A stretch of DNA of 64,000 nt from an uncultured Candidatus Saccharibacteria bacterium (lineage in GTDB: Bacteria > Patescibacteriota > Minisyncoccia > Phycocordibacterales > UBA9973). How positions within the stretch are numbered: position 1 is the stretch's first letter; the number at the start of each line of letters is the position of its first letter. Under the pieces are notes generated by a model. It did no database searches. It saw only the letters and a program-made list of their open reading frames with translations, and was not told the DNA's origin. Shown here one piece after another: positions 2,854 to 34,761 of this stretch. The DNA lies in contig CAYOLW010000005.1 in the NCBI GenBank assembly GCA_964404925.1, positions 5,458 through 69,457 of the forward strand. The letters are read 5' to 3'. The position numbers and the translations under genes were made by a program.

Positions 2854-3255
2854 TTAAACAGATGGCTGTTCTTGTCTTTCTAGGTCTAAAAGTTGCTTTT
2901 CGAGTTTAAGAATTTCTTCTTGGACTTTTTTGATTTGATCTTGTCCTTCACCCATTTTAATATCAATTTCTAGATTCTTACGTTCAGCTTCAAGTGCTTG
3001 TTTTGTAAATTCTATTTTATCATGTAAATTTAATTTATTATAACTATCTATTTCAAAAGCTTTTGCAGGGTTTATTCCCGGATATTTCTTCATATCAATC
3101 CCCCATTTAGGTTGAAAGTCATTAAAGAATTGCTGGTCCGCCGTACTGTTTGTCTGCGCTTCTACACCTTCTACAGCAGTTGTTATTGCAGCAGCAATTG
3201 TCATGCCCCTTCTAGCTTTTCCCCTTGTAAAAATTTTCTCAAATGGATTTTTCAT
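2854..3255 (-). CDS. hypothetical coiled-coil protein, first gene of the ferric reductase operon
   Basis: ORF with a 4-nt gap to the downstream gene; heptad-rich C-terminus; no recognisable domain. Confidence 0.35.
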   Translation of the reverse strand: MKNPFEKIFTRGKARRGMTIAAAITTAVEGVEAQTNSTADQQFFNDFQPKWGIDMKKYPGINPAKAFEIDSYNKLNLHDKIEFTKQALEAERKNLEIDIKMGEGQDQIKKVQEEILKLEKQLLDLERQEQPSV

Positions 3256-11888: not shown

Positions 11889-12441
11889 GCAGACAAGAAA
11901 CAAAAATAACCACAAAGATAAGCCACTCCAAGTGATCTTTGAGTTCTGGGAAAATACTTCCAAGGAAGTATCCTACTGATATTACACCAACAGACCATAT
12001 AGTAGATCCGATAAAGTTATAAAGAATATATTTTCTAAAATCCATATTAGCAACACCTGCGACTGTGGGCATAAATGTCCTTACGACTGGAACAAAACGT
12101 GCCAAAACAATAGCCAAGTGTCCATGTTTTTCTAAAAATAAATGTGCCTTGTCAATATATTCTTTTTTTAAAATACTTCTAAAGAATTTAAACTTTCTTA
12201 ACCTTTCTAGATACACCCCTACGTAATAACCTAAAATACCACCAAAAAATGTGGCTATAAAAACAAGGGGTATAAGATAAAAAATATTTAGATGCCCAGT
12301 GACAGCTACCAGACCAGCTGTAAATAAAAGAGAGTCTCCAGGCAAAGCGAAGAAAATACCTGATTCTAAAAAGACGATAACAAATATGCCTGCGTAACCA
12401 TATACGCTAATTAAATTTTGTATATCAAAAAGTAAATCCAT
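11857..12441 (-). CDS. DedA/SNARE-associated family inner-membrane protein
   Basis: FLESGIFFALPGDSLLFTAG DedA signature; 4-5 TM helices. Confidence 0.8.
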   Translation of the reverse strand: MDLLFDIQNLISVYGYAGIFVIVFLESGIFFALPGDSLLFTAGLVAVTGHLNIFYLIPLVFIATFFGGILGYYVGVYLERLRKFKFFRSILKKEYIDKAHLFLEKHGHLAIVLARFVPVVRTFMPTVAGVANMDFRKYILYNFIGSTIWSVGVISVGYFLGSIFPELKDHLEWLIFVVIFVSCLPILGSFLKKK

Positions 12442-12614
12442 TATTCTTCTATATCATCCTCAACCTCTGCGCGTAGAACACGATGATCACCATCAGCACA
12501 ATGGCATGGGACCAGCTTTTCATTGTAGCGATTGCAATCGCTCGCTTGGCAGACTCCAGGATTATTAGAAACCCCCTCACACTCACCTAAGCATATGTAA
12601 TGATTGTTTTCCAT
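12441..12614 (-). CDS. small Cys/His-rich putative metal-binding protein (57 aa; absent from ORF track)
   Basis: My translation: MENNHYICLGECEGVSNNPGVCQASDCNRYNEKLVPCHCADGDHRVLRAEVEDDIEE; 7 Cys and 3 His; the TAATG stop/start overlap with DedA suggests translational coupling; a TATAAT box lies upstream. Confidence 0.4.
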   Translation of the reverse strand: MENNHYICLGECEGVSNNPGVCQASDCNRYNEKLVPCHCADGDHRVLRAEVEDDIEE

Positions 12615-12676
12615 AATAGATATTATATCACGAAAAATAAGTAAGAGATTATATCTTTTCTATTTCTTTCAAATCT

Positions 12677-12856
12677 TTACCTGGTAAATACACTGTTCCT
12701 CCCCTTACCTACGATTAATCGTATGTGTCGGTGATTACCTTCACTAATTATTCCATCCAATGCGTGAGAGCATTCAAGTGTGGTATACCCATGAAAATCA
12801 ACTACCAAATCAGGTACTTGTTCGTATTTATTACCAACACCTTTGTAGTAGGACAT
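12677..12856 (-). CDS. short Smr-domain-like protein (59 aa; absent from ORF track)
   Basis: My translation: MSYYKGVGNKYEQVPDLVVDFHGYTTLECSHALDGIISEGNHRHIRLIVGKGRNSVYLPG; the D.HG...EA...IIvGKG.nS pattern matches the Smr N-terminal half. Confidence 0.4.
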   Translation of the reverse strand: MSYYKGVGNKYEQVPDLVVDFHGYTTLECSHALDGIISEGNHRHIRLIVGKGRNSVFTR

Positions 12857-12874
12857 ATATGTGTACCCACAATA

Positions 12875-13594
12875 TTATTTGAGTGTAATACTTTTGATTA
12901 TTACTGGCTCAAGTGGTCTGTCATTTGAATCGGTAGCTACATTATTGATTGCATCTGCTACACTCGCCCCAGACACAACCTTGCCGAAAACGGTATGTTT
13001 AGCATCTAGAAAGTTGTTGTCAGCTGCGTTGATAAAGAATTGGCTACCGTTTGTATTAGGACCAGAATTAGCCATAGATATTGTGTATTTGTTGTTTTTA
13101 TTACCAGCTACTATCTCATCGTTAAATTTATATCCAGGACCACCGGTACCCCAGTACGCATCTTTACTGTCATCTTTAGACAAAGGATCTCCACCCTGAC
13201 TCATAAACCCCTTGATCACGCGATGAAACTTGGTTCCATTGTAGAATCCTTCTTTTGACAACTTTATGAAATTCTCAGCGGTCTTAGGAGTTACAGCACT
13301 AAATTCTATAGTAATATTTCCTTTGGTTGTTTGTATGACTGCTTGAGTAATCTTTTTAGTATCGTTTACGCTGGTGTCTTTTGTATTATCACTCTCTGAT
13401 GCTACTGGTTTTGATTCAGTTTCTGTTGCTAAGCCACCCTCTTTCTCCGCATCACCAACAACAGTCTGTGAGTCTTCTGCCTGATTTGTGGCCTGTTTAT
13501 TAGGCTTAAACAAGAAATACATACCCACGAGTACCGCTACGAGTAACACTAAAATACCTATATACCCACCCTTAAATTTATTTTTCATACGCAA
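12875..13594 (-). CDS. ppiB: membrane-anchored cyclophilin-type peptidyl-prolyl cis-trans isomerase
   Basis: FHRVIKGFMSQGGDP, WGTGGPGYKF, MANSGPNTNGSQFFI; N-terminal TM helix then Ser/Thr-rich linker. Confidence 0.85.
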   Translation of the reverse strand: MRMKNKFKGGYIGILVLLVAVLVGMYFLFKPNKQATNQAEDSQTVVGDAEKEGGLATETESKPVASESDNTKDTSVNDTKKITQAVIQTTKGNITIEFSAVTPKTAENFIKLSKEGFYNGTKFHRVIKGFMSQGGDPLSKDDSKDAYWGTGGPGYKFNDEIVAGNKNNKYTISMANSGPNTNGSQFFINAADNNFLDAKHTVFGKVVSGASVADAINNVATDSNDRPLEPVIIKSITLK

Positions 13595-13637
13595 TATTAT
13601 ATCACGATAATAAATACAAAATAGTATTCTTACTTTT

Positions 13638-13757
13638 TAATCTTTTTGTATTTTTACCAAACCTTTTTTGGTTGTACCGAGCATGTATCCATTATATTTT
13701 TCTAGTTCTGGAACTTCAATAGGGAGAGTAATTTCTGGCTTAGAGAATGCAATTTAT
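13638..13757 (-). pseudogene. orphan 3'-terminal gene fragment, about 90% nt identical to the 3' end of ORF 17614-18213
   Basis: Reads ...IAFSKPEITLPIEVPELEKYNGYMLGTTKKGLVKIQKD* versus ...IAFSKPEIALPIEVPELEKYNGYMLGKTQSGIVKIDKD* in the full gene; begins exactly at the stop of the L,D-transpeptidase gene. Confidence 0.5.
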
Positions 13758-14653
13758 GTACTAGATTTAATCTTTGGTAAATAGTTTTTAACTAAATCTT
13801 CTAAAATGGATCTAGGTGTATCTGTTGATTTTGAGTTTTCTGGTAATAATGTCCAAGGTGCAGGACCATCAAAATTATAGTTATTATATACAACAACAGG
13901 TGTACCTTCTGTTATCACTTCACCATTTTTCCACGTCCACTCCTCGGTCCATTTATACATCCAATAAGCATCAGCTTCAGTCATACGTACACAAGAGTGA
14001 CTAGCAGGATATCCTGGCAAACTGTACTGATGCATTGATATGCCTGCCAAATTGTCTATATTCATATTCCACTTCAATATCCATTCATCGTCAAAGGTAC
14101 TAATAGTTTCCTCTCCTTTCCAATTTACAAAGAAAAGACCGCTTGGTGTCTGGTTTAACTTTTTACCCGAACTAACAGGCCCGCTATGTACCAACAAACC
14201 ATACTCATAAGCACCAAATGCTTGTATGGGCTGAGATACTATTATTAATTTTGGTATGCTCTTGGCAGTGCCAATTTTACCTGGCAAGTATTCCCATTTT
14301 TTAATAGTATTAATATCCTTTGGAACAACTATGGTCATTCCGGGTCTTATATTGCCACGGTCTATTCTATTTATTCCTAGCACTAAATCTACATTTGAAT
14401 CTCCGACCAAAGTTATTAACTCATTTAAAGGTTGTTTTGATGATAACTCAACCTTAGTAAACATACCAACCGGTCTTGCTTGGGTGGGATATGATACAGA
14501 CTCTACTGCTTTTCTTAGTTTACTTGATATTGGTTCATTCGCTGTATAAATAATATTGGCATTATCGTTTAGACGAGTACTTCTGATAAGAATAAAAGCA
14601 AGTATAAACAGTGAAACAATTATTAATACTAGAATTGAATTTTTTTTCACCAA
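13754..14653 (-). CDS. L,D-transpeptidase (YkuD domain) with N-terminal TM anchor
   Basis: Catalytic motif YPASHSCVRM (HxC); N-terminal signal/TM. Confidence 0.75.
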   Translation of the reverse strand: MVKKNSILVLIIVSLFILAFILIRSTRLNDNANIIYTANEPISSKLRKAVESVSYPTQARPVGMFTKVELSSKQPLNELITLVGDSNVDLVLGINRIDRGNIRPGMTIVVPKDINTIKKWEYLPGKIGTAKSIPKLIIVSQPIQAFGAYEYGLLVHSGPVSSGKKLNQTPSGLFFVNWKGEETISTFDDEWILKWNMNIDNLAGISMHQYSLPGYPASHSCVRMTEADAYWMYKWTEEWTWKNGEVITEGTPVVVYNNYNFDGPAPWTLLPENSKSTDTPRSILEDLVKNYLPKIKSST

Positions 14654-14703
14654 CTGATGACGTTTAAGAAACTAAAAAATTACATATACATACTAAATAA
14701 ACA

Positions 14704-14732
14704 TTGACATTGGGTACACGATTGCTACTATT
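14704..14732 (+). promoter_or_regulatory. candidate promoter TTGACA-17-ACTATT upstream of the ATG at 14740
   Basis: Consensus -35; weak -10; the ORF track's TTG start lies inside this promoter. Confidence 0.3.
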
Positions 14733-14739
14733 AGGTCCC

Positions 14740-15282
14740 ATGATACTAACACCGACATATGAAATGCCTTATAGTGTCCCATTATTTTCGCAGATCAGCG
14801 ATATTTCATCTGTGGCTTGGAAGCAAAAAGGTTGCGGAGTTGCAGACGTTGCAATGATAGTTGAATTCTACAAACCAAACACAACTTCAGTGCAAGAAGT
14901 ATTAGAAGAAGGCTTAAAGGCCGGTGCTTACGTGAAAAATGTCGGTTGGAGTCATAACGGTCTCGCGTCCTTAGCAGTAAAACACGGTTTAGTAGGCAAG
15001 ACTGTTGATTTATCAAATTTTAAAAATGCAGCTGCACTAAAAGAGTTTCGAAGTACTGTAAAAGAAGGACCGGTTATAGCGTCTATACATCGAGGTTTTA
15101 ACCCAAAAAGTCCGTACGGACATTTAATTGTTATAACTGGGTTTGACGATAAGTTAGTTTATTATAATGATCCAGGTAAACGCGACGGAATAAGGACAGT
15201 TGCAATTGAAGACTTTGTCAAAGGCTGGAAAAAAAGACTGATTGTTATAAGGGAACCTGATACAAAGATATCTCTGCGTTAA
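14740..15282 (+). CDS. papain-like cysteine peptidase of the C39-like family
   Basis: AWKQKGCGVADVAMIV (Cys nucleophile) ... GHLIVITGFDDKLVYYNDPG (His) matches the Peptidase_C39_2 pattern; ATG 14740 preferred over the track's TTG at 14704. Confidence 0.6.
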   Translation: MILTPTYEMPYSVPLFSQISDISSVAWKQKGCGVADVAMIVEFYKPNTTSVQEVLEEGLKAGAYVKNVGWSHNGLASLAVKHGLVGKTVDLSNFKNAAALKEFRSTVKEGPVIASIHRGFNPKSPYGHLIVITGFDDKLVYYNDPGKRDGIRTVAIEDFVKGWKKRLIVIREPDTKISLR

Positions 15283-15310
15283 GTTTTACATCGTAATTAT
15301 TTTTTAGATT

Positions 15311-16180
15311 TTATTCACAACCCCAGCCATCCCCGTCCCTGTCCAACCCATATTCATCATAACCAAGCACTTGAACTTTACCTGTATAATACGGACCATT
15401 ACCTGAGCCACCAGCACAATCATAGTCACTGGCATTAGGTTCTAAGCAGCCCGAATAATTGGAATTACACTGAGGTAAAGCTTGCTTGGTTGTTGTGGTC
15501 GTAGTCTTCAAAATTGCAGGCTCTGTAATAATAGGTGTGGGCAAGGCCTTAGAACCATTGCATTTATCAGGACCCCACAGTCCTCTCTTGTTTAACTCTG
15601 CTTCTCGCTGAGCGGATTTGAATTGTTGTTGATATTTATAAGGCAAATCATAAGTATATTCGTAGGCATAACCGTCTTTAATCATTTTAAGATTAAAGTT
15701 AGTCCCATCTTCTAAAAAGACATATCGTAGTAGCCTGTCGTATTTATCGCGCTCTCCTTGGGTGCTGTCTATCTCAAGAGATACTTGCTTACCCGCAAGT
15801 GTTGCCTTGGCTTTATTAGAAGCCTCGATTCCAAAACATTCTACTGGTTTTCTGGGGTCTACTGTTTCGGGAGTATTTATACCAATTAACCTTAATCTTT
15901 CAACCTTGCCATCAATAGCAACATCTAGAGTATCTCCGTCTATAACTTTTATAACTTTATAAAGATCTGAATTAACATTAATTGTTGGGTTTAAATCATC
16001 AGAAACAACATTGATCTCAGCCTTGTCTTCTGCTGGTGTTTTTATCTCTGCAACTTGTGCTTGAGGTGCTGCAACTTTTCTTTTAAACACTTTCCAACTA
16101 AAAGGATTCCACCAAGAAGCCAAAGCTATGGATGGTATCAAAAACACAACTAAAAACAAAACAGGTGCATATTTTTTCAT
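15311..16180 (-). CDS. secreted thermonuclease (SNase-like) fused to a C-terminal Excalibur Ca-binding domain
   Basis: Signal/TM MKKYAPVLFLVVFLIPSIALA; SNase motifs VIDGDTLDV...RLRLIGINTPE; C-terminal DYDCAGGSGNGPYYTG...DRDGDGWGCE. Confidence 0.75.
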   Translation of the reverse strand: MKKYAPVLFLVVFLIPSIALASWWNPFSWKVFKRKVAAPQAQVAEIKTPAEDKAEINVVSDDLNPTINVNSDLYKVIKVIDGDTLDVAIDGKVERLRLIGINTPETVDPRKPVECFGIEASNKAKATLAGKQVSLEIDSTQGERDKYDRLLRYVFLEDGTNFNLKMIKDGYAYEYTYDLPYKYQQQFKSAQREAELNKRGLWGPDKCNGSKALPTPIITEPAILKTTTTTTKQALPQCNSNYSGCLEPNASDYDCAGGSGNGPYYTGKVQVLGYDEYGLDRDGDGWGCE

Positions 16181-16218
16181 ATAATTTTGATCCCTCTATG
16201 AGGGTTGCTAATAGAGGG

Positions 16219-16242
16219 CTTGATGTTTGGATTTCAGAACTT
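16219..16242 (+). repeat. repeat copy A (core only: GATGTTTGGATTTCAGAACT) preceded by hairpin CCCTCTA...TAGAGGG
   Basis: Shares the GG(T)RTGGATTTCAGAACT core with copies B-D. Confidence 0.6.
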
Positions 16243-16288
16243 ATGAGGAATCATGAGCTAATCAGAAATGGTATTAAATCAATTAATT

Positions 16289-16945
16289 CTATTTCCTATT
16301 AATAACAATTTCTGAAACTTCCATGTTTTTAGGTAGGTCCAAAATCTGTTTTAACAAAAGAGCTAAATCTTCTGGCTTCATCCATTCATCTCCATTCTCT
16401 GTATTATCTACACCAGTCGCTTTTTCAAAAAGCTTAGTTTTGAATCCTCCTGGGCAAAAGCTAATTACCCTATTTGGCTTACCTTTAAATTCTTCTTGTA
16501 AGTTTTTACTAAATCCTCTAACTGCCCATTTAGATGCACCGTAAACTGCCTGATTTACATAACCTTTTAACCCCACCGTAGAGGCTACATTTACGATATC
16601 AGTTTTATCATTAAGAATTCTTTCATACAGATTTGATATTAGCAAAATCTGAGATTTTACGTTAGTAGACATTAAACGCTTTATTTCATCTTCTGTGATT
16701 TCTCCCATTTTTTGCACAGACAAAACACCCGCACAATTAATTATTGCTTCTACAGGTTCTTTTAATTCTAATATTTGATCTGTAGCTTTTTTAATTTCTT
16801 CTCCTTCACGAAGAGATAAGCAAATATTCATATCAGCATATTCACATTCATTTCTAGAAATATTTAGAACTTTCTTACCTGCTTCTTTATATAATTTTGC
16901 GACTTGTTTTCCAAGTCCATCACTGGCTCCAGTTATTATTATCAT
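16289..16945 (-). CDS. short-chain dehydrogenase/reductase (SDR) family oxidoreductase
   Basis: IIITGASDGLGK (TGxxxGxG); YGASKWAV (YxxxK). Confidence 0.8.
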   Translation of the reverse strand: MIIITGASDGLGKQVAKLYKEAGKKVLNISRNECEYADMNICLSLREGEEIKKATDQILELKEPVEAIINCAGVLSVQKMGEITEDEIKRLMSTNVKSQILLISNLYERILNDKTDIVNVASTVGLKGYVNQAVYGASKWAVRGFSKNLQEEFKGKPNRVISFCPGGFKTKLFEKATGVDNTENGDEWMKPEDLALLLKQILDLPKNMEVSEIVINRK

Positions 16946-16957
16946 AATTACATTATA

Positions 16958-17103
16958 CCAAAAGTTCGCCTCGCTCGTAAGCTATGGCTGAGAGGAATTA
17001 CACTACGCCTGCCCGTCCTCTGGCGGGGCATACAAACTTGGACCCATAAATATATAGGTTTTATGATGTGCGGGCTTGAGGTATGGATTTCAGAACTTTT
17101 GAA
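16958..17103 (+). repeat. repeat copy B (CAAAAGTTCG...CCTCGCTCGTAAGCTATGGCTGAGAGGAATTACACTACG...CATAAATATATAGGTTTTATGATGTGCGGGCTTGAGGTATGGATTTCAGAACTTTTGA)
   Basis: Direct repeat; contains a degenerate copy (GGGCTTGAG) of the tRNA-Trp 3' end. Confidence 0.7.
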
Positions 17104-17152
17104 GCGCCACTCTTTGATTAAATTAAGTATTAATAGTTTTAATTAAAAAAAA

Positions 17153-17611
17153 TTATTTAACTGTATCTTTAAAAAATTCAACGACCTTGTCTTTTAAAAC
17201 ACCTTTAACAATTTCAGGTCTATAACCGTAATTCTCTGCAAAGTCATTAATTGAGTATTTCTTTGGCATAAACCTGCCAGGAATATCCCCTCTCATAGCC
17301 CCAATTACAATCTTATTTATTCCTGCTTGAAGAATAGCACCAGAACACATAACACAAGGTTCGTTGGTAGTATACATTATACACTCCTTTAAACTTGTAG
17401 TCTTTAGTGTCTTACATGCTTTCTTTATTGCTTGAAGCTCTGCATGAGCAGTGACATCATGAGTGGCCACATCTTCAGCATGTGCGGTACTTATGACTTC
17501 ACCATTCAAAACTACCATAGCACCAAATGGTAAATTGCCAGAAGCCTTTCCTTTGACCGCTTCAGCAATTGCTAAACTCATAAATTCTTCGTCTGTGATT
17601 AACGAGCTCAT
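17153..17611 (-). CDS. CMP/dCMP-type zinc deaminase (TadA-like tRNA adenosine deaminase or guanine deaminase)
   Basis: HAELQAIKK ... NEPCVMCSGAI (HAE / PCxxC zinc motifs); 152 aa. Confidence 0.8.
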   Translation of the reverse strand: MSSLITDEEFMSLAIAEAVKGKASGNLPFGAMVVLNGEVISTAHAEDVATHDVTAHAELQAIKKACKTLKTTSLKECIMYTTNEPCVMCSGAILQAGINKIVIGAMRGDIPGRFMPKKYSINDFAENYGYRPEIVKGVLKDKVVEFFKDTVK

Positions 17612-17613
17612 TT

Positions 17614-18213
17614 TTAGTCTTTATCTATTTTAACAATTCCACTTTGAGTTTTACCAAGCATGTATCCATTATATTTTTCTAGTTCTGGAACTTCAATAGG
17701 CAATGCAATTTCTGGTTTAGAGAATGCAATTATTGTGCTGTAATCTTTTTTACTTATTCTTTCTTTATCTGTGCATTCATCAATGTGTCCAGATAAAATA
17801 ACCTTCTCAAGGTTTAAACAAACATCAAAAACCTTTTCACTAAAGACTTCTAAATTCTTTACCAAGACAACTCTATCTTGCAAATCGGGGAGCACTTTCA
17901 CCACTTCATTAAACAAAGCTTCATTACCACTTTCAAGTATGATGACTTGAGAATCTTTTGCTTCCTCTAATTCTTCTAGCGAAGTTACGAAAGCAACTTT
18001 TGAGCTATCTTCACCCACTTGTTCCAAAAAGTTTTCTTTTGCCATTGTATAAGCAGTCAGGAATAATATTTTTGAACCAGACTTAAACAAGTCAGCAACA
18101 ATAGTAATACTAAAATGTGAACCCCCCGTTTTCTCTGCATAAGTTACTAAACACGGTAAATCACTTTCAGTAAATTTATACAATTCCCCTTTCAATAATA
18201 TATTGTTTTTCAT
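17614..18213 (-). CDS. hypothetical protein (199 aa), co-transcribed with the deaminase; its 3' end is duplicated at 13638-13757
   Basis: No recognisable motif; 2-nt gap to the deaminase start. Confidence 0.4.
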   Translation of the reverse strand: MKNNILLKGELYKFTESDLPCLVTYAEKTGGSHFSITIVADLFKSGSKILFLTAYTMAKENFLEQVGEDSSKVAFVTSLEELEEAKDSQVIILESGNEALFNEVVKVLPDLQDRVVLVKNLEVFSEKVFDVCLNLEKVILSGHIDECTDKERISKKDYSTIIAFSKPEIALPIEVPELEKYNGYMLGKTQSGIVKIDKD

Positions 18214-18234
18214 ACTAAAATTATACTATAGTTC

Positions 18235-18348
18235 ACCTCGCTCGTAAGCTATGGCTGAGAGAAATTACACTACGGTCTGCAAACTTAGACCCATAATATA
18301 TAGGTTTTATGATGTGCGGGCGATGAGGTGTGGATTTCAGAACTGGTG
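18235..18348 (+). repeat. repeat copy C (CCTCGCTCGTAAGCTATGGCTGAGAGAAATTACACTACGGTCTGCAAACTTAGACCCATAATATATAGGTTTTATGATGTGCGGGCGATGAGGTGTGGATTTCAGAACTGG)
   Basis: Contains an exact copy (GTGCGGGCGATGAG) of the 3' acceptor end of tRNA-Trp. Confidence 0.7.
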
Positions 18349-18429
18349 AGGGACCATACTGCGGTTGAAATAAGTCTTAATGAGATTAAAATATGTTACT
18401 AAAAGCAACTTCAAGGTTATAATATAACA

Positions 18430-19020
18430 ATGTTTAACATTGATTGGCATATAATCGTCGGGAGTTTAGGTGGGTTGATTGCTTTTTTATCTATTGTTCC
18501 ATACGTTATGGATATCTTGCGTGGCACAACTAGACCAAATATTGCTTCGTATTCTCTTTGGGCTTTTCTAATTTTTATTTCAATGATGGCACAAATAGAG
18601 GCAGGGGCCTCTTGGTCATTAATCTTATTGATCGGTGACCTGCTGGCTGTATTAATAGTACTATTGTTTTGTGTTACAGGATATGGATATAAAAAATATT
18701 CATGGATTGAATACATTTGCTTCACTCTTGGTATTCTGGCAATTATTTTATGGCAAATAACCAGTCAACCACTTTTAGCAATTGGTTTTGCAGTTCTAGC
18801 AGACTTGATAGCGTCCATACCAACTGTCGTAAAAACTTATCGTGACCCATGGTCTGAACTTCCTTTTGCTTGGTTTCTGGTAGCCTTTGGGGCAATGCTC
18901 GGTATAGTATCTACCACTATCTGGAATCTAGAAAATATTTTATTCCCGTTAAATATTCTAATAATAAATGGAACGGTGGCGGTTATTGCATTTTGGGGTA
19001 GGCGCACGCAAAGTTCTTAA
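18430..19020 (+). CDS. hypothetical 6-TM membrane protein
   Basis: Hydrophobic throughout; followed by a 9-bp-stem hairpin TGAGCAAGG-CAAGA-CCTTGCTCA (19033-19055). Confidence 0.4.
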   Translation: MFNIDWHIIVGSLGGLIAFLSIVPYVMDILRGTTRPNIASYSLWAFLIFISMMAQIEAGASWSLILLIGDLLAVLIVLLFCVTGYGYKKYSWIEYICFTLGILAIILWQITSQPLLAIGFAVLADLIASIPTVVKTYRDPWSELPFAWFLVAFGAMLGIVSTTIWNLENILFPLNILIINGTVAVIAFWGRRTQSS

Positions 19021-19055
19021 AGGCACTCAAAATGAGCAAGGCAAGACCTTGCTCA

Positions 19056-19111
19056 CTAAATATATAGGTTTTTGATTTGCGGGATTGAGGTATGGATTTC
19101 AGAACTTTTGA
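19056..19111 (+). repeat. repeat copy D (CTAAATATATAGGTTTTTGATTTGCGGGATTGAGGTATGGATTTCAGAACTTTTGA)
   Basis: Degenerate tRNA-3'-end copy (GGGATTGAG). Confidence 0.65.
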
Positions 19112-19161
19112 GAAACTCTAATTTCATAAAAACGAGTCTTCTAAGTTTAAAATTAGTTAAA

Positions 19162-20094
19162 TTAATTTGAATCTAGCCTACCTAAAATAAAAGGATTGTG
19201 AGCAAACTTCTCAAACCACTTCAAATATTCCTCTAACACCATCATATTCCCACCAGCTTGAAAATCTATTCTAATGTCTTCAACAGCGTTTAATATGGTA
19301 TGAGCAACTAAACGCTCTCTTGATAACTTATTTCCAGAATACTTTTCATAACTACTAAACACAATTTCAGCGTAATCAGGATAGTCCTGTATATAGCGAG
19401 TAAGTCCAGCATGAATGTCACCGTATTCTGTATCTCCAAAATCAACCATAGATACAAATTTACCTTTATTGACTAATATATTTTCATGATGACTGTCGTT
19501 ATGTGATAAACCAAAGACTGCATCCTTCTTTGTTTTACTAAATATTTCAATAACCTGCTCGACAATGCTTTTGTAATTATTTGGAATATTGTCATCGGTC
19601 AGAAAAACATGAACACTCTCTTGTGTCTCTTTCTCAAAATCAGCATCTTGGTTTATTTTCAAATGAATTGTTTCTATTTCATTCGGGGTCAAGCTTTTTC
19701 CCAAATCAGCGTGGAATTTACCTAAATTCTCGCAAATTAATTTTCTATCTTCTTCAACTAGGTCTTCCCATGAATTCTGCATTGTGTCACCAGAAATAAA
19801 GTCATAACAATACATTTTTGGGTCTTCAGAAATATAAACTATCTTAGGGACTAAAAGTGATGGGTTGTTCTCATTTAACTTCTTAAGCAGTTCTGCTTCT
19901 ACCAATAAATCATTTTGCTCATCAGTATCCTTGTTAAATTTTTCCTGTTTTACTAAATACTCTAACTCTTCGTCAGTTTTCACATACCAAGCGTTATTAC
20001 ACATACCTTGACCTATTAACGAAAACTTAACAATACTTTTACCTAGTTTTTTTGCAACAACTTGTTCTAGATATTTTTCTTCTATTTCTTTCAT
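19162..20094 (-). CDS. phosphotransferase enzyme family (APH/choline-kinase-like) small-molecule kinase
   Basis: Catalytic loop HNDSHHENILVN; VDFGDTEYGD (DFG-equivalent); start ATG at 20094 preferred over the track's TTG at 20100. Confidence 0.7.
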   Translation of the reverse strand: MKEIEEKYLEQVVAKKLGKSIVKFSLIGQGMCNNAWYVKTDEELEYLVKQEKFNKDTDEQNDLLVEAELLKKLNENNPSLLVPKIVYISEDPKMYCYDFISGDTMQNSWEDLVEEDRKLICENLGKFHADLGKSLTPNEIETIHLKINQDADFEKETQESVHVFLTDDNIPNNYKSIVEQVIEIFSKTKKDAVFGLSHNDSHHENILVNKGKFVSMVDFGDTEYGDIHAGLTRYIQDYPDYAEIVFSSYEKYSGNKLSRERLVAHTILNAVEDIRIDFQAGGNMMVLEEYLKWFEKFAHNPFILGRLDSN

Positions 20095-20107
20095 AACCAA
20101 AGTATAT

Positions 20108-20173
20108 CAAAAGTTCGGAATTACACTACGGTATGCAAACTTAGGCCTATAAATATATAGGTTTTATGATGTG
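20108..20173 (+). repeat. repeat copy E (CAAAAGTTCGGAATTACACTACGGTATGCAAACTTAGGCCTATAAATATATAGGTTTTATGATGTG), contiguous with the intact tRNA-Trp 3' end
   Basis: Same conserved segment as copies B and C, running directly into the tRNA gene. Confidence 0.7.
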
Positions 20174-20244
20174 CGGGCGATGAGAGAATCGAACTCCCGC
20201 CAACGGTTTTGGAGACCGTTGTTCTGCCACTAAACTAATCGCCC
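20174..20244 (-). tRNA. tRNA-Trp (anticodon CCA); CCA not encoded
   Basis: Reverse complement GGGCGATTAGTTTAGTGGCAGAACAACGGTCTCCAAAACCGTTGGCGGGAGTTCGATTCTCTCATCGCCCG; anticodon stem ACGGT/ACCGT with loop CTCCAAA; T-loop TTCGATT. Confidence 0.85.
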
Positions 20245-20265
20245 GAAAACCCGCCTTGCGGCGGG
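20245..20265 (-). terminator. stem-loop CCCGCC-GCAA-GGCGGG followed by a U-tract, between rpmG and tRNA-Trp
   Basis: Read on minus strand; abuts the tRNA 5' end, so it may act as terminator, attenuator or processing site. Confidence 0.45.
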
Positions 20266-20389
20266 GTTTCGCGGAACGCAAAATAAAAAAAATGCGTTCC
20301 ATATATAAGGCCGAAGCCTCATAATAAAGAACACGCAACAGACGACCTGTTGCGCTATCAATTATACCAGAGTCAGAGAAAAAACAAAA

Positions 20390-20551
20390 CTATTTCTTGA
20401 GTTCTTTATGTTTAGTTTTAACCTTGCACCACTTGCAATATTTCGCCAATTCAAGCTTGGTGGTAACGGTCTTTTTGTTCTTGCTGGACCAGTAATTAAC
20501 CCTTTTGCACTTGCCGCAGGCGAACTTAATAAGTCTAACTTGTTTAGCCAT
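20390..20551 (-). CDS. rpmG: 50S ribosomal protein L33 (absent from ORF track)
   Basis: My translation: MAKQVRLIKFACGKCKRVNYWSSKNKKTVTTKLELAKYCKWCKVKTKHKELKK (C4 zinc ribbon); the usual rpmG-tRNA-Trp linkage is preserved. Confidence 0.85.
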   Translation of the reverse strand: MAKQVRLIKFACGKCKRVNYWSSKNKKTVTTKLELAKYCKWCKVKTKHKELKK

Positions 20552-20588: not shown

Positions 20589-21770
20589 TCATATTACCAC
20601 TCTTTTGATTTTTGGGTTCAAGCGATAAAAACGCTTAATAATAGGGTTAATTCTGGTAACAATCTCATAGTTAATAGTATCAGCATCTTGAGCCAGCATA
20701 TCAGCCTCGGCATAATGTCCGTGTGATCCACCAATTATGTCTATTTCATCCCCTGGTTTAGCCCCAGTTCCGGTCAAATCTACCATAACCATATCCATAC
20801 ATACAGTACCAATAATTTTAACCTTTTTACCATGAACAATAAAAACACCTTTCCTCGAAAGCGCTCGCGGGTATCCATGCCAATACCCAACCGGCACAAT
20901 ACCTACTACAGAGTTTCTTTTTAATTCTTCGGTTAAGTCATAACCCACCTTGGCCCCCTTGGGTAATTGCTTTGTTTCAGTGATAATCGACTTCCAAGAA
21001 AGCACCGGATGAAGTTTGTATTTTTTATTCATGACATTTTTAAGTTCACGAGAAGACCATAGCCCATATGAACCAATACCCACCCGTACCATATCATAAT
21101 GTAAGTCCGGAAAAAACATCGTCGAAGAAGAAGCACATAAATGTTTCAGGAATTTAAATCCAGCTCTTGAAAAAGCCTCGCTCCATACCTCAAGCTCACG
21201 TGCTTGCTGGTAAGTAAATTTTCTACCAGAGAGTGCTTCACCCACAGCCAAGTGGCTATACAAACCCTCTACACTGACAGAAGAAGACTGCTTTAAAATA
21301 TCAACTACTAGTGCAAGGTCTTCTTTCAAGAATCCTTGTCGCCTTAACCCGGTATCAGATTTAATATGTACTTTTAATTTATTTTTTAATTTTAATTTTT
21401 TTAAACAAACCAATGACTCATGGCTAGAAATAGTTACAGATATATCAAGGTTAGACGCTTCTTTAAAATACTCTGGGGAAACATAACCGAACACCAATAT
21501 GGGTGTTTTTATTTTTGCTTGTCTAATTTCTAAAGCTTCTTCAAAAGAATCCACTCCCAGAAATTGTGCACCCAGTGCCACTAATTCCTTGGTCATAGGT
21601 AAAAGCCCATGCCCGTAAGCATTAGATTTAACTACTGGCATTAGAATTGTTTTTTTATTTAGTAAACTTTTGAAAAGTTTGAAATTATGTTCAATAGCCT
21701 TGCGGTCAAGCTCTATCCAAGTTCGTAACTTGCTTTTTTCTTTTTTAGACAGAATTCTAGTACTCGGCAT
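20589..21770 (-). CDS. alr: alanine racemase
   Basis: PLP-Lys motif VVKSNAYGHG; C-terminal beta domain; start chosen at MPSTRIL (21770) to avoid a 68-nt overlap with ddl. Confidence 0.8.
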   Translation of the reverse strand: MPSTRILSKKEKSKLRTWIELDRKAIEHNFKLFKSLLNKKTILMPVVKSNAYGHGLLPMTKELVALGAQFLGVDSFEEALEIRQAKIKTPILVFGYVSPEYFKEASNLDISVTISSHESLVCLKKLKLKNKLKVHIKSDTGLRRQGFLKEDLALVVDILKQSSSVSVEGLYSHLAVGEALSGRKFTYQQARELEVWSEAFSRAGFKFLKHLCASSSTMFFPDLHYDMVRVGIGSYGLWSSRELKNVMNKKYKLHPVLSWKSIITETKQLPKGAKVGYDLTEELKRNSVVGIVPVGYWHGYPRALSRKGVFIVHGKKVKIIGTVCMDMVMVDLTGTGAKPGDEIDIIGGSHGHYAEADMLAQDADTINYEIVTRINPIIKRFYRLNPKIKRVVI

Positions 21771-24141
21771 TTTGGATAATAGTTTCGAGTAATTCTTTTG
21801 GATAAAGAGGTTTCTTCTCAGCAAGACCCTGATGATACAGCACGGTTGATGGCGTCAACCCAGGCAATGTGTTCACTTCTATTACCAGCAATTCCCCGCT
21901 TTGAATATTCATAAAAGCATCAATTCTTGCATAGCCAGTAAGGCCAATCTTTTGCGCCAATTCTTCAATTAATTTTTTAGTTTTCTTGATTGCTTTTTGC
22001 TTAACCACACTACCCGGTGGTGGAGTGAGGTTAACCCCAGTACCGCCTTGGAACTTCTCCTCCAGAGAAAGCACTTCACCTTCGGCAATAGTGATACTTG
22101 GATTCAGCGCATGATATTTACCTTTGTGTTCAAATAAACCCACCGTTACTTCAACCCAACCTGTTACCTTTTTGTGTTTGATTTTATTATCAACCACTCT
22201 AACCTTGTCAGTATAAATAAACTTTTCAAACATTATATCGTTTAATTTTGTTGTAGGCATTTCAACGATAGCATCCTGACTGGTTAATGTTCCAACAGGT
22301 ATGAAACTCGTCGCTTCAAACAGAAATTGCAAGTAGTTCATGAGGTCTCGTTCGTTGAATAAATGCGCCACACCCGTTGAGCATCCATCATCCTTGGGTT
22401 TAACTATCACAGTATTGGCTCCGAGTTGTGCCTTTAAAGCACGCCAAAACGCACTCACGTTTTGCAATTTCTCAAGCTCTTTGACTGTATACACTGCTTG
22501 CTCAGCAATACTCAGTCCTTTTATTTTAGCTTTTCTTATAAATTCACCAGTGTCCCATTTGTCCATACAAAGTCTAGAAACATGGGAATTAGAACCATTA
22601 TGTTTTACTTTGTTTTTCTCCAAAATAGCCTGGATTGTGCCGTTTTCACCAGCACCACCGTGTAGACCTAAGAATATAAATTTAGATTTATCTATCAATT
22701 CTTCCATAGTTATTTGTTCAGGTCTGAAGAAATCTTCTGTTGCATCACCAGGCTCAAGCATCAACTCTTCTTTGATTGGTTTGACCATATTGACTACTTT
22801 ATCGTAATTCTTTTTTGCTTCTTTTACGTTATCCAGGATTTCTTCGACGGTGTGATTTAGTATGAGCGCATAGGGTAGTTTCCATATTTCTCCTTTGAAA
22901 CCAAGCAAGTGTGGGATTGGTTCGTAGATCTTAGATTTCTTGAGCTTGAGCCACACATTGGTACCACTCATCAGTGATACTTGTCGCTCGGATGTATCCC
23001 CGCCGAATAGTACGGATACAGGTTTTCTTTTAAGATTTTTCTTGGATTCAATATTTGTATTAAATTTTACCCCTTGCCTCTGTGCAGAATTTTTAATAAC
23101 AAAACGCAAAAGCTCTCCGTGGCTCATTCCAATACGAGAAGACTGCTGGAACAAGAAACTATTTTGCTCCATTCCTGAGATCGTATTAAAGTCAGAGAAC
23201 CATATGTTGCCATCCGGCATCAACCATCCATCAAAACGAGCAAAATCTTTCATTCCAAAAAGAGAAAAAATTTGAGATGCTTGCACACGAATATTATTAA
23301 TCACTTCTTCGGAAAAACGTGGAGGGCAGTGGTATTTAACCTGGTTAGTTGGTAGATATTTCTTACGAAAGTCAAAAATCCTACCTTCATGGTAAGTCAT
23401 TTCAATTTCGGATGGTAACAATGCTACCGGTAGACCAAGTTTGTTTTGTAAAACTATTACAGTAAACTCGCGTCCAGTTGCAAAAGGCTCTAACACAACG
23501 CGTGTGTCCATGCGTTTAGAAAAAATGATATTTGCCTTTTCTAATGCTTCTTTGGGATTGTGGACAGTGAAAACCCCAATACTTGATCCAGAGGTAGCTG
23601 GCTTTACTATTGCTTTATCTATTTTATTTTTCTTAAAGAATTCCTTGATAACCTTTTCATTATCTGATGAATAAATCTTCAATAGCGCAGAAGGCAAAGT
23701 ATGGAATCCATTTTGACTTAATGTTTGGTTTGAATTGTGTTTATCAAAAGCTTCTTTGCAAGACTTAGATCCAGATCCAACAAACGGGACATTGTGTTTT
23801 TCTAAAAATTTCTGTATTTCTCCGTCTTCACCAAAGGCTCCATGCATAGCCGGGAAAACAATATCTACTGATTTCAACAATTTAACTAAGGATGTATTAT
23901 TTAACTCCTTCGCATGATTAGCTAATTTAAAATCAAAATCTGATGGGGTATTAGAATAAAGTTGCGCTTTTGATATCTTGTAAGCTTTCTTTTTTATATC
24001 AAAATATATTGGTACTACTTCAATACTGTCAGCATCCAAGTGATCAAGCACACTCCGAGCCGAATTAAGCGATATGCCCCTCTCGAGTGATGGTCCACCG
24101 GTCAAAACTGCAACTTTGAATTTCTTTGTTTTTTCAGTCAT
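21757..24141 (-). CDS. ddl: tandem-fused double D-alanine--D-alanine ligase (two complete Ddl/ATP-grasp modules in one 794-aa polypeptide)
   Basis: Module 1: KFKVAVLTGGPSLERGISLNSARSV ... KPATSGSSIGV ... SDFNTISGME. Module 2: KPVSVLFGGDTSERQVSLMSGTNV ... KPKDDGCSTGV ... ARIDAFM ... EVNTLPGLTPSTV. Confidence 0.75.
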   Translation of the reverse strand: MTEKTKKFKVAVLTGGPSLERGISLNSARSVLDHLDADSIEVVPIYFDIKKKAYKISKAQLYSNTPSDFDFKLANHAKELNNTSLVKLLKSVDIVFPAMHGAFGEDGEIQKFLEKHNVPFVGSGSKSCKEAFDKHNSNQTLSQNGFHTLPSALLKIYSSDNEKVIKEFFKKNKIDKAIVKPATSGSSIGVFTVHNPKEALEKANIIFSKRMDTRVVLEPFATGREFTVIVLQNKLGLPVALLPSEIEMTYHEGRIFDFRKKYLPTNQVKYHCPPRFSEEVINNIRVQASQIFSLFGMKDFARFDGWLMPDGNIWFSDFNTISGMEQNSFLFQQSSRIGMSHGELLRFVIKNSAQRQGVKFNTNIESKKNLKRKPVSVLFGGDTSERQVSLMSGTNVWLKLKKSKIYEPIPHLLGFKGEIWKLPYALILNHTVEEILDNVKEAKKNYDKVVNMVKPIKEELMLEPGDATEDFFRPEQITMEELIDKSKFIFLGLHGGAGENGTIQAILEKNKVKHNGSNSHVSRLCMDKWDTGEFIRKAKIKGLSIAEQAVYTVKELEKLQNVSAFWRALKAQLGANTVIVKPKDDGCSTGVAHLFNERDLMNYLQFLFEATSFIPVGTLTSQDAIVEMPTTKLNDIMFEKFIYTDKVRVVDNKIKHKKVTGWVEVTVGLFEHKGKYHALNPSITIAEGEVLSLEEKFQGGTGVNLTPPPGSVVKQKAIKKTKKLIEELAQKIGLTGYARIDAFMNIQSGELLVIEVNTLPGLTPSTVLYHQGLAEKKPLYPKELLETIIQNAEY

Positions 24142-33269: not shown

Positions 33270-34724
33270 TTAAATCATCGGTTCGGCTTCTTCAGTTTTT
33301 TCTTCAGTTGAGCTATTTGATTTACCAGAAATTGCTTCTTTTTCTTCTTTACTGCGGATGATGGTAGCCTCTTCTTCTTCAATCAGTCTCTGAGCCGCGT
33401 CCTTGGTAATAGCAAATTGATGTCGGGAAGCAGCCTTGATCTCGTCGCGATAGGACGGATGAGTTGGCGGCAATACACGCAGTGTCTCTGCTGAGAATGG
33501 GTCATAGCTTTCGCCATCAATAGTCATTTTGATATAGAATTCACCGACGGCCAGGTTGATCATGTCCTTTACTCCGAACAGCGGATCGAATTCAGATTTA
33601 AGCCTCGTCGCATCTTCACCACCCACACGGAAACTAATTATACTTCCGGTATTACCAAGCACCGCCTGATAAATCTTGGGGTTAATTTGACCCACGTACT
33701 GATGTGCCATTGTTAGGTTCAATCCGTACTTACGCGCCTCTGACAGAATATTCTCAAATGTCTGAGTAACCACGTTTTGAAACTCGTCTACATATATATA
33801 AAAATCTTGTCGCATATGCTCGGGAATATTAGCCCGCTCCATACCCGCCTGTTTAATCTTGGTCAAGAACATTGAGCCAAAGAAAGATGAATTTTCTTCA
33901 CCAATACGGCCTTTGGACAAATTGATTAACACAATTTTCTTTTCATTCATTAGTTGCGCAATGTCAATTTTGTTTTCCTTCTGTCCAAAAATATTACGAA
34001 GCAACGGATCAGAGAGGAATTGACCAAGCTTGTTCACCAACGGAATAATAGCGTCGGTGTCGAACTTCTCGGACCAATCGGCGAATTCGATAGCGAAGAA
34101 TCTCTTCACCATGTCGTCTTGGATATATTCCACCACCTTCTGACGGTAGTTACGGTCGGTCAACATAGAAATCATTCCACGCATGGTAGCGTATGGATAG
34201 TCAAGTAGTGCCAAACAGGTAAAACGAAACACGTGCTCGAGTCTCGGGGTCCAGTTAGAACCGAACTGCTTTTGGAACACCTCAATCAAACCTTGGGTCA
34301 ATTGAAATTTGAAACCAGGGTCAACATTAGAAAGCGGATTGAAAGATGCTGGGAATTCAGAATCCGAAGGGTCCAAGATGCAAACATCATTAATGCGTTC
34401 TTTGGGAATGTAGTCGAGCATCGAGTCTATCACATCACCGTGCGGGTCAATGAGACACAGTCCATGCCCATAAGTTATGTCTTGGCGAAGGAAAAGTTCT
34501 AGGAGTTTAGTCTTACCCACACCGGATTTACCAATGATATACAAGTGGCGACGACGGTCGACTCTTTTGATGCCAAAAATATACTTTTTCTCTTCAAGCG
34601 CAGCCACATAGTTGGTCCGTCCAATAAAAGACACATCCTCAGGGGCCACTTTACCATATGCTGGCAATTCTGGTGGTGGTGGACCGTATTTGATTATCTG
34701 AACTCGATTGGGTTTGGACGTCAT
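33270..34724 (-). CDS. soluble P-loop NTPase of the HerA/FtsK/TraD-TraG superfamily (paralog of 37144-39528)
   Basis: Walker A IIGKSGVGKTKL; LIDPHGDV; Walker B YIYVDEFQN; paralog alignment (FGIKR.DRR.H.YI.GKSG.GK, LVN.SKGRIGE.NS, MAHQY). Confidence 0.55.
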   Translation of the reverse strand: MTSKPNRVQIIKYGPPPPELPAYGKVAPEDVSFIGRTNYVAALEEKKYIFGIKRVDRRRHLYIIGKSGVGKTKLLELFLRQDITYGHGLCLIDPHGDVIDSMLDYIPKERINDVCILDPSDSEFPASFNPLSNVDPGFKFQLTQGLIEVFQKQFGSNWTPRLEHVFRFTCLALLDYPYATMRGMISMLTDRNYRQKVVEYIQDDMVKRFFAIEFADWSEKFDTDAIIPLVNKLGQFLSDPLLRNIFGQKENKIDIAQLMNEKKIVLINLSKGRIGEENSSFFGSMFLTKIKQAGMERANIPEHMRQDFYIYVDEFQNVVTQTFENILSEARKYGLNLTMAHQYVGQINPKIYQAVLGNTGSIISFRVGGEDATRLKSEFDPLFGVKDMINLAVGEFYIKMTIDGESYDPFSAETLRVLPPTHPSYRDEIKAASRHQFAITKDAAQRLIEEEEATIIRSKEEKEAISGKSNSSTEEKTEEAEPMI

Positions 34725-34761
34725 ATTTGATATTAGATGTTATAAGTGTATCATAATAAAT

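Follow-up and report, generated by a model that had tools for sequence, protein, structure and literature searches.

In staphylococcal cassette chromosome mec (SCCmec), the CcrAB enzymes are large serine recombinases (LSRs), and recombinase-less pseudo-SCC elements are found in tandem at rlmH. In streptococci, cis-mobilizable elements (CIMEs) accrete with integrative conjugative elements; these systems use tyrosine integrases and involve much larger elements. The nearest concept to the locus described here is the tRNA island of Prochlorococcus, which is built by tycheposons: multi-kb elements that carry their own integrase, often together with replication genes, and that use tyrosine recombinases in 910 of 937 cases, a minority having a large serine recombinase (Hackl et al., bioRxiv 10.1101/2020.12.28.424599). 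Our subject is an array of four small gene modules anchored at a tRNA-Trp gene, in a 64,000-nt stretch of DNA (“the window”) from an uncultured Candidatus Saccharibacteria bacterium (contig CAYOLW010000005.1). The modules, 0.75-1.25 kb long and with one or two genes each, are delimited by five repeat copies that lie behind the tRNA gene.

As in tycheposon islands, insertion at the locus appears to occur at the 3' end of a tRNA gene, older units seem to be displaced outward and tRNA-derived repeats lie between units. In contrast, the array is made of units of the size given above, with one or two genes, without enzyme or replication genes and with a putative promoter of their own; its repeat looks like an attP-type half-site rather than plain partial tRNA, and its hosts belong to the candidate phyla radiation (CPR). 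With integrons the array would share one-gene units with one recombination site each, a fixed platform, an order that reflects age and an enzyme encoded outside the cassettes. It differs from them in the enzyme (serine instead of tyrosine recombinase), the platform (the end of a tRNA gene), the site (a linear motif without a conserved fold) and the presence of cassette promoters. SCCmec offers LSRs, tandem growth from the 3' end of a single conserved gene and recombinase-less units that use an enzyme in trans, but the target is rlmH rather than tRNA-Trp, the units are 10-50 times larger, and the recombinase family considered here is a very divergent one. CIMEs are also att-bounded, non-autonomous elements that accumulate next to an autonomous element, whose recombinase can mobilise them; the regular single-gene arrays of the CPR locus set it apart from them. 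Phage serine integrases (A118/LI, Bxb1, phiC31, SPbeta) show the same domain architecture and the same 5-bp offset of a motif between attP and attB. Unlike them, the system described below would target the T arm and acceptor of a tRNA, the recombinase open reading frame (ORF) crosses the crossover, and cassette sites apparently have one specific half-site.

The interpretation that we favour, with a probability of about 0.6, is that recombinase-less cassettes were inserted serially at the 3' end of tRNA-Trp by an LSR supplied in trans. A survey of open-access papers yielded no description of such arrays, or of tRNA-targeting serine recombinases, in CPR. What appears to be new is a clade of tRNA-targeting LSRs whose ORF crosses its own crossover site, promoter-bearing and recombinase-less cassettes that combine one or two genes with just one P-type half-site, and the spread of the system across CPR classes.

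Repeat units and their junctions

The intact tRNA-Trp at the head of the array was recognised by both ARAGORN and Rfam (Table 1). From its 3' end, the order is arm E, the APH gene, copy D, a membrane-protein ORF on the opposite strand and copy C; beyond copy C lie a 199-aa ORF with a deaminase gene, copy B, the short-chain dehydrogenase (SDR) gene, copy A and an unrelated secreted nuclease gene. The repeat copies are found where the original prediction, made from the sequence alone, had placed them, and far above chance. An 18-mer, GGATTTCAGAACTTTTGA, occurs five times with up to three mismatches (0.16 occurrences expected; none of 100 shuffles attained five), and a 25-mer, ATATATAGGTTTTATGATGTGCGGG, has three exact occurrences against 0.00 expected.

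Comparison with relatives resolved the repeat into two parts, a conserved right unit that includes the hexamer GCGGGC (hereafter, CORE) and a variable left arm. On the plus strand, the CORE reads GCGGGCTTGAKGTTTGGATTTCAGAACTTTTRA and is followed by around 45 nt of weaker, AT-rich conservation. The location predicted for the repeat was thus correct, but its right part extends some 45 nt further than proposed. Copy A, which had been described as a bare core, contains the complete right-hand unit and lacks only the left arm. In an nhmmer search with a profile built from 17 copies, the 64-kb window matched at the four array COREs only (16215, 17070, 18316 and 19079), and no dispersed copies of the REP or MITE kind were found outside the array.

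Fourteen positions of the CORE (TGGATTTCAGAACT) are invariant in 16 of 16 aligned copies, which come from the window, two Saccharibacteria metagenome-assembled genomes (MAGs), a Paceibacterota MAG, a Nomurabacteria MAG and two metagenome contigs. RNAalifold yielded 0 pairs over the 16 copies on the coding strand, Rfam had no match to the repeats, whether the gathering or a permissive threshold was applied, and a motif scan detected no terminator-like hairpin in the CORE. Because it has no conserved fold, no Rfam match and 14 invariant nucleotides, the CORE looks like a protein-binding DNA site rather than an RNA, and the possibility of a known or structured RNA was dropped. A degenerate T arm or anticodon arm was also considered and discarded: the stems are unpaired, and ARAGORN finds no pseudo-tRNA.

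The relationship with the tRNA is narrower than a copy of its 3' end, as originally proposed. The tRNA 3' end GCGGGCGATGAG is exact in copy C and degenerate in copies B and D, and the repeats of the window share just 6-12 nt with the tRNA. In the comparison between CORE and tRNA 3' end, only the hexamer GCGGGC is common; the T-loop motif GAAC is also present, displaced 5 bp outward. The conservation of the CORE halts exactly at GCGGGC, which is the tRNA 3' end on the other strand. The conserved unit would be an attP-type half-site and not, in the main, a copy of the tRNA end.

The left arm was indeed found in copies B, C and E, but it appears to be a variable promoter module and not the conserved part of the element. 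At least five unrelated arm types abut the CORE. The window-type arm, present in those three copies and as a 22-nt remnant (19057-19078) in copy D, is carried by Saccharibacteria at 93-95% identity, and arm E is 94-95% identical to arms in two Saccharibacteria loci (L004 and L008). In all four cassettes of the window and in the SDR cassette of the Paceibacterota locus L009, a -10 hexamer, read by eye, precedes the first ATG by exactly 6 nt; a simple promoter scan gave no enrichment and did not flag these boxes. We therefore consider the arms as likely promoter modules that end in a -10 box, and the spacing between the -10 box and the ATG suggests leaderless cassette transcripts. Relative to arm E, arms B and C have a common 26-nt insertion (16968-16993 and 18235-18260) that supplies TTACGA, a -35-like hexamer, and arm B contains an additional G+C-rich hairpin, CCCGTCCTCTGGCGGG (around 17007-17029). 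Arms would seem to evolve through small insertions. An attC-like hairpin bracketing arm and CORE (CAAAAGTTC/GAACTTTTG) was rejected as both sides are altered in copy C without compensation; its left copy overlaps an extended -10 (TTTTGnTATAAT) and was taken as a promoter feature.

The observations on junctions in the window and in its relatives can be listed as follows:

(i). Three left partners (the window-type arm, a type-1 arm and the 3' end of a recombinase gene) are each joined to the tRNA in some cases and to the CORE in others. In all three, the point at which the partner switches is within GCGGGC.

(ii). Two Saccharibacteria loci, L018 and L008, share 97.7% identity along 1877 nt that end with the GCGG of the hexamer, and diverge thereafter. 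Past the hexamer, L018 continues into tRNA-Trp and rpmG, and L008 into a CORE and at least six cassettes. The pair can be read as an empty site and a filled site.

(iii). Two loci from two other data sets (L025 and L026) contain tRNA-Trp, arm E, the APH gene and CORE D at 93% identity to window positions 20204-19079. The identity stops at the first base of CORE D; the next unit is not the membrane-protein cassette but another one.

(iv). At the outer end of the array, copy A is joined to the chromosomal flank and not to an arm, an attR-like junction.

Such junctions are classical marks of site-specific recombination with a crossover in a short shared core. A crossover in the middle of the CORE (GAAC|TTTT) can be discarded: the tRNA would not survive such an exchange, and the junction data are incompatible with it.

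CORE-bounded arrays of single genes were found directly 3' of tRNA-Trp in L009/L016 and L014, and also in L008, L004, L015 and L003, where the excerpts, of 8-14 kb, end short of the tRNA. Their gene content is wholly different from genome to genome: relatives carry NUDIX, DUF805 and DUF2784 genes, and many genes without a family. Nevertheless, individual cassettes are shared between distant lineages. The SDR cassette of the window is found in L009 at another array position, with 88.5% identity in the protein and 84.3% in the DNA over window positions 16213-16963, starting at the first base of the CORE; the Alr proteins encoded next to the two arrays are only 35% identical. A 153-aa cassette shows 85.9% DNA identity between L008 and L009, loci that otherwise have only COREs and arms in common. 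A pattern scan of metagenomes added three true loci; five of the ten genome matches were chance matches in non-CPR bacteria, and the repeat pattern had no match in a viral collection. Altogether, the original proposal, that site-specific integration took place repeatedly at the 3' end of tRNA-Trp, is supported by the partner switches, the L018/L008 and L025/L026 comparisons and the cassettes common to distant lineages.

The recombinase family and its sites

As the original prediction had noted, the array contains no integrase. None of the gene-like ORFs of at least 110 aa in the window encodes a recombinase, and a tblastn search of the 64 kb with a related serine recombinase was also negative. 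Neither the window nor the CORE arrays examined showed a tyrosine recombinase. A gene that encodes Resolvase, Recombinase and Zn-ribbon domains (Pfam PF00239, PF07508 and PF13408) borders the L008 array at its distal end. After repair of a frameshift, the gene product has at least 777 homologues at E<=1e-10, and the best 120 are mostly intact and 555-625 aa long. Residues R15, S17, D87, R88 and R91 are invariant in the family, as are the Cys/His residues of the zinc ribbon. At the sequence level, matches to solved structures are limited to the catalytic domain (TP901-1 integrase, 1e-11), while an AlphaFold model (mean predicted local distance difference test score of 68) gave full-length Foldseek matches to serine integrase-att complexes 9dxh, 9dxd and 9y66, with E=1e-12 to 1e-14. 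Sequence and model thus point to a divergent LSR clade, identified in relatives of the window. In a viral collection, no close relative was found with the LSR as query, the single candidate locus being 48% identical. The enzyme missing from the window is most likely an LSR rather than a tyrosine integrase.

The link between this family and the sites is physical, as the LSR ORFs cross the recombination junction. Many members end in …AGDERIELPPxxLExxVLPLN before the stop codon, which is the translated antisense strand of tRNA-Trp; in the window, translation from 20173 onward gives AGDERIELPPTVLETVVLPLN followed by a stop. The LSR gene overlaps tRNA-Trp in L018 and L017, which hold full LSR elements of 3-10 kb at the same tRNA site. 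In relatives, the rpmG/alr flank adjoins a tRNA-Trp occupied by a recombinase, and the gene encoding homologue P0021 is next to rpmG and alr, like the array of the window. The L008 LSR ends in the CORE (…AADLMFGFQNF, then the stop), and other members (L017, L020, L004) end in a second site family, which we call CORE2. A rough classification of the tails of the best 120 homologues assigned about 90 (about 75%) to the antisense-tRNA type and 14 to the CORE2 type.

The C-terminal tail varies with the partner: it comprises around 21 aa of antisense tRNA, 10 aa of CORE or around 28 aa of CORE2 (comparison of homologues P0001-P0120, with L018 11657-11722, L008 3989-4021 and L020 11687-11776). Integration would therefore rewrite the C-terminal end of the LSR, which could act as a regulatory switch. 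A sister LSR subfamily is fused to antisense tRNA-Glu(ttc) (L023 2560-2640 and 10001-11723), and the family therefore targets more than one tRNA. In L023, the tRNA-Glu LSR bounds a 9-kb island with a HEPN/AbiU2 gene, and the far end of the island has a CORE2-like site with the tRNA-Glu 3' end at its start. In L017 (1-12700), the island and tRNA-Trp are inverted relative to the window: rpmG-alr lies beside the distal CORE2, and the tRNA beside miaA. This island carries DUF87 ATPase, SIR2_2 and trypsin-like genes that look defence-related.

We also examined the position of the GAAC motif, taking the initial base of the shared hexamer as nt 1. In six of six tRNA sites (five tRNA-Trp and one tRNA-Glu), the motif begins at nt 19; in the window, the tRNA-Trp 3' end through the T arm corresponds to plus-strand positions 20173-20201, GCGGGCGATGAGAGAATCGAACTCCCGCC, with GAAC at nt 19-22. 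In contrast, GAAC starts at nt 24 in CORE and in CORE2-Trp. The same value is obtained for CORE2-Glu and for the L019 site (P0070) if counted from their own hexamer (raw starts, 23 and 26), and copy C, with one extra base, has GAAC at nt 25. In serine integrases, the motif for the zinc ribbon domain occupies positions 16-24 of the attP half-site and lies 5 bp nearer the centre in attB (PMC3783163). The 5-bp offset of GAAC between tRNA and CORE agrees, as sequence geometry, with this rule, so that the tRNA side would behave as a B-type half-site and the CORE as a P-type half-site. Application of the rule places the crossover at around nt 3-5 of GCGGGC, in agreement with the junction data. In addition, the 3' end of the LSR gene gives GGATTT on the other strand, symmetric to the GGATTT of the CORE about nt 5 or so of the hexamer; autonomous elements would therefore have a roughly dyad-symmetric attP.

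Two further observations concern the CORE. An AT-rich, semi-conserved block with consensus TTGATTAAATTAAGTATTAA lies 45-65 nt from the hexamer (16247-16294, 17103-17147, 18350-18399 and 19112-19155), beyond the usual footprint of a serine integrase. Besides, variants in L008 (4738-4831) and L009 (6487-6552) have a hairpin-forming insertion of around 28 nt within GGA^TTTCAGAAC that shifts GAAC far from the hexamer. These COREs may be dead, or the insertion may be tolerated.

A model of serial insertion and its alternatives

In the model that we favour, a cassette would comprise, from the tRNA outward, a variable promoter arm, one or two genes and a CORE. A circular cassette, moved by an LSR that it does not encode, would recombine through its CORE with the tRNA half-site, strand exchange occurring within the shared hexamer (GCCCGC on the tRNA strand). 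The tRNA 3' end and T arm would be an attB-type half-site and the CORE an attP-type half-site with GTTC 5 bp further out, one good half-site presumably being enough. The product would be an intact tRNA joined to the new arm and gene, and then a CORE joined to whatever formerly trailed the tRNA. Since only the half-site on the tRNA/CORE side is conserved, the tRNA junction would stay B-type and the internal junctions P-type, and insertion would be repeatable. Newcomers would always enter beside the tRNA, older cassettes being displaced outward, and recombination of the tRNA with a downstream CORE by the same reaction would release the block nearest the tRNA. The LSR could be provided by an element in the same cell or be present transiently. 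The model explains why E is an arm without CORE, why the internal copies are complete, and why A is a CORE without arm and the most decayed copy.

A broader view, which we put forward tentatively, is that the system may be a CPR counterpart of the integron based on a serine recombinase. The tRNA-Trp 3' end (or other tRNAs in the case of sister enzymes) would be a permanent docking site for promoter-bearing mini-cassettes that have an attP-type half-site only. Each tRNA x CORE event would regenerate one site of each kind, hence permitting iterative capture, and release of tRNA-proximal blocks, without a directionality factor; the tail of the LSR would be rewritten at each event since the ORF crosses the junction.

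Several observations weigh against serial insertion by an LSR. The 64-kb window is devoid of a recombinase gene, no circular cassette or excision product was observed, and the L008 recombinase, the sole LSR found beside mini-cassettes, carries one frameshift. The arm side of the cassettes has neither a shared motif nor a conserved half-site; the LSRs characterised so far rely on two recognisable half-sites, and hybrid sites are not recombined by them unless a directionality factor is present. The 28-nt insertion breaks the 5-bp geometry in some COREs. Lastly, the SDR gene carries different arms in the window and in L009, which means that another process can bring arms and genes into new combinations.

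The latter observation leads to the alternative that stands up best, albeit an unlikely one: natural transformation and homologous recombination would spread the cassettes, with the CORE, the arms and the tRNA-rpmG flank as portable homology, and site-specific recombination would concern recombinase-carrying elements only. The presence of two different arms on the SDR gene does look like re-assortment, the window encodes DprA and TfoX, and the CORE plus window-type arm is 90-95% identical across lineages over 65-105 nt. However, breakpoints are found at one hexamer instead of being spread over the 100-nt repeats; the 14 invariant nucleotides and the 5-bp shift of the motif fit protein recognition rather than a need for homology, and the location of the array at a tRNA would have no reason.

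Slightly less probable is the view that the modules are decayed remains of larger elements that integrated at tRNA-Trp and later lost their recombinase by deletion, the small cassettes not being mobile themselves. Prochlorococcus islands are thought to grow by such decay. The full elements of L017 and L018 occupy the same site, and decayed sites exist: copy A, a site near 4911 in L009 and another at 3098-3202 in L014, where the nhmmer profile gives a weak additional CORE match (3139-3202, E=1.5e-4). Decay does not easily account, however, for the finding of the same small cassette, with the same boundaries, in distant genomes, nor for arms that appear to be promoter modules and not remains of recombinase genes. 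Furthermore, cassettes are found on either side of LSR elements: in L008 they are nearer the tRNA than the LSR element, and those of L004 are beyond a CORE2 site that apparently starts a larger element, although neither an LSR gene nor tRNA-Trp was seen in the 8-kb L004 locus.

A different integrase, for instance a tyrosine recombinase acting on the 19-nt block of tRNA-Trp identity present in some relatives, seems improbable as the agent that moves the cassettes. The longer tRNA fragments of L004, L008 and L025 (GCGGGCGATGAGAGAATCG) do suggest a second kind of event at the tRNA, but the repeats of the window have no more than the 6-12 nt in common with it already mentioned, and the search for tyrosine recombinases in the window and the CORE arrays was negative.

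Even less credit can be given to a resident terminator-promoter element between native genes, unrelated to mobility. The putative -10 boxes in the arms and the position of the CORE just 3' of each gene would fit such a function. Against it, the original prediction had named two patterns that would speak for a ubiquitous intergenic element, and the data show the reverse of both: profile matches are confined to the array in the 64 kb, and modules vary between relatives, to the extent that the gene content of the locus is completely different. In addition, recombinase genes are fused to the site, and the motif scan of the CORE revealed no terminator-like hairpin. Finally, a classical integron or an attC cluster that lost its integrase, which the original prediction had offered as an alternative in view of single-gene cassettes with one conserved site each and a fixed insertion end, fails the defining tests and can practically be dismissed: there is no IntI, the linked enzyme is a serine recombinase, the CORE lacks R''/R' inverted repeats and a conserved fold, and each cassette seems to have its own promoter.

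Genes of the locus and biological significance

The coordinates of the array and its flanks are given in Table 1.

Table 1. Features of the tRNA-Trp array and its flanks, from the tRNA-proximal flank outward (positions in the window), followed by repeat copies and -10 boxes.
Feature	Position	Strand	Basis or remarks
alr, beyond rpmG	20589-21824		
rpmG (ribosomal protein L33), proximal flank	20390..20551	minus	Pfam
tRNA-Trp(CCA), intact	20173-20244	minus	ARAGORN; Rfam tRNA 20174-20244, 68.6 bits
Arm E, putative promoter arm of the APH cassette	20095..20172	minus	Joined directly to tRNA 3' end (attL-like junction)
Cassette 1 gene: APH-family phosphotransferase	19162..20094	minus	310 aa from ATG; Pfam PF01636
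CORE copy D, end of cassette 1	19079..19155	plus	GCGGGATTGAGGTATGGATTTCAGAAC...; GAAC at nt 24-27
Terminator-like hairpin of the 6-TM (six-transmembrane) gene and arm remnant	19030..19078	plus	GAGCAAGG..CCTTGCTC; read from sequence
Cassette 2 gene: multi-pass membrane protein	18430..19020	plus	196 aa; no family (Pfam scan)
CORE copy C	18316..18399	plus	tRNA-like GCGGGCGATGAG, then GTGTGGATTTCAGAAC; GAAC at nt 25
Arm C, window-type	18214..18315	minus	26-nt insertion
Cassette 3: 199-aa ORF	17614-18213	minus	No family (Pfam scan)
Cassette 3: cytidine/TadA-like deaminase	17153-17611	minus	Pfam
CORE copy B	17070..17147	plus	Nearest to consensus; profile E=1.9e-18
Arm B, window-type	16946..17069	minus	Two insertions
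Cassette 4 gene: SDR	16289..16945	minus	218 aa; Pfam PF00106
CORE copy A, most distal	16214..16294	plus	Hexamer decayed to GAGGGC; profile E=1.5e-15
Secreted staphylococcal-type nuclease gene, distal flank, outside the array	15311..16180	minus	Pfam PF00565
Repeat copies	A 16214-16246; B 16958-17102; C ~18225-18349; D 19057-19111; E 20108-20172		E abuts the tRNA
-10 box, SDR gene	ATG at 16945		TGGTATAAT-GTAATT-ATG
-10 box, 199-aa ORF	ATG at 18213		TATAAT-TTTAGT-ATG
-10 box, APH gene	ATG at 20094		TGATATACT-TTGGTT-ATG; TATACT 6 nt upstream of ATG
-10 box, membrane-protein gene (own)			TATAAT-ATAACA-ATG
-10 box, SDR cassette of L009			TATAAT-ACTCAT-ATG

The module genes had been correctly anticipated: Pfam supports the SDR, deaminase and APH assignments, and the 199-aa and membrane ORFs have no family. 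The 199-aa ORF and the deaminase gene form one transcription unit (17153..18213), and the former is 45% identical to an ORF that adjoins a PIF1 helicase in L014. The membrane-protein gene is the only one in the array with the opposite orientation. The window, probably a metagenome assembly, could in principle have cassettes mis-ordered across the 100-nt repeats; the junction of flank, copy A and SDR gene is reproduced at 100% identity in an independent contig of 1165 nt (L001).

Upstream of the tRNA-Trp gene lie alr and rpmG. The rpmG-tRNA spacer (20245-20389) contains hairpins, among them GGAACGCAAAATAAAAAAAATGCGTTCC and AAACCCGCCTTGCGGCGGGGTTT, and can be aligned with the Saccharibacteria locus L018 (11729-11880), with 74% identity over 427 nt. 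On the other side, the array begins much closer to the VTT and cyclophilin genes in L015 (11100-12100) and L014 (2300-3860) than in the window (12400-16200). The YkuD, C39 peptidase and nuclease genes of the window (13754-16180) may be older insertions that are no longer accompanied by their COREs.

A structured element of around 110-140 nt lies between arm and CORE in L004 (4811-4937 and 6440-6566), L008 (6824-6968) and L025 (reverse, ~274-420); its right-hand part is also found in L015 (11960-12068), and the window lacks it. It opens with the longer tRNA-Trp 3' fragment (GCGGGCGATGAGAGAATCG). Pairing in its 5' hairpin is kept by compensatory changes (AGCAGAAAAA/TTTTTCTGC, AGCAGGCAAA/TTTGCCTGT and AGCAAGCAAA/TTTGCTTGC), and the tRNA-derived GAUUCUCUCAU pairs with an internal GUGAGRAAUC. 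The fold has z-scores of -4.8 and -2.6 and no match in Rfam. Among the possible explanations for this element are an RNA cassette, a decoy site and a scar left by integration of a second kind at tRNA-Trp.

The nearest non-identical relative of the APH protein of the window (52% identity), encoded in a contig of 2467 nt (L024), adjoins a fragment of a tyrosine recombinase. The repeats that flank it, with ..AAC / GTTAAGT ends, resemble classical integron attC sites. Hence, the APH gene family may travel in two unrelated cassette systems.

The window as a whole has a G+C content of around 37% and housekeeping genes typical of CPR/Patescibacteria, including those for DprA, TopA, RelA, ParB, MiaA, Alr, Ddl, RpoA, S4, AlaRS and DnaJ/GrpE. 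Among the loci fetched, its closest syntenic relatives are L015, L014 and the Candidatus Nomurabacteria MAG L003, with DNA identities of 66-76%. Genes related to DNA uptake and transfer are found at 33270-39528, 81-947 and 40339-40686: three adjacent genes for TraG/TrwB-like and treble-clef zinc-finger ATPases, dprA, and a gene for a TfoX-domain protein. Such machinery could deliver cassettes.

Little is understood of how CPR/Patescibacteria, whose genomes are tiny, acquire and exchange accessory genes. The locus described here points to a compact gene-capture platform, common to CPR classes, at which single genes with their own promoters are exchanged between lineages whose housekeeping proteins are around 35% identical. 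The system would extend the range of LSRs to tRNA targets and one-sided sites, and is relevant to site choice and discrimination by these enzymes. New enzymes for genome engineering, with short, well-defined targets, could also come from it.

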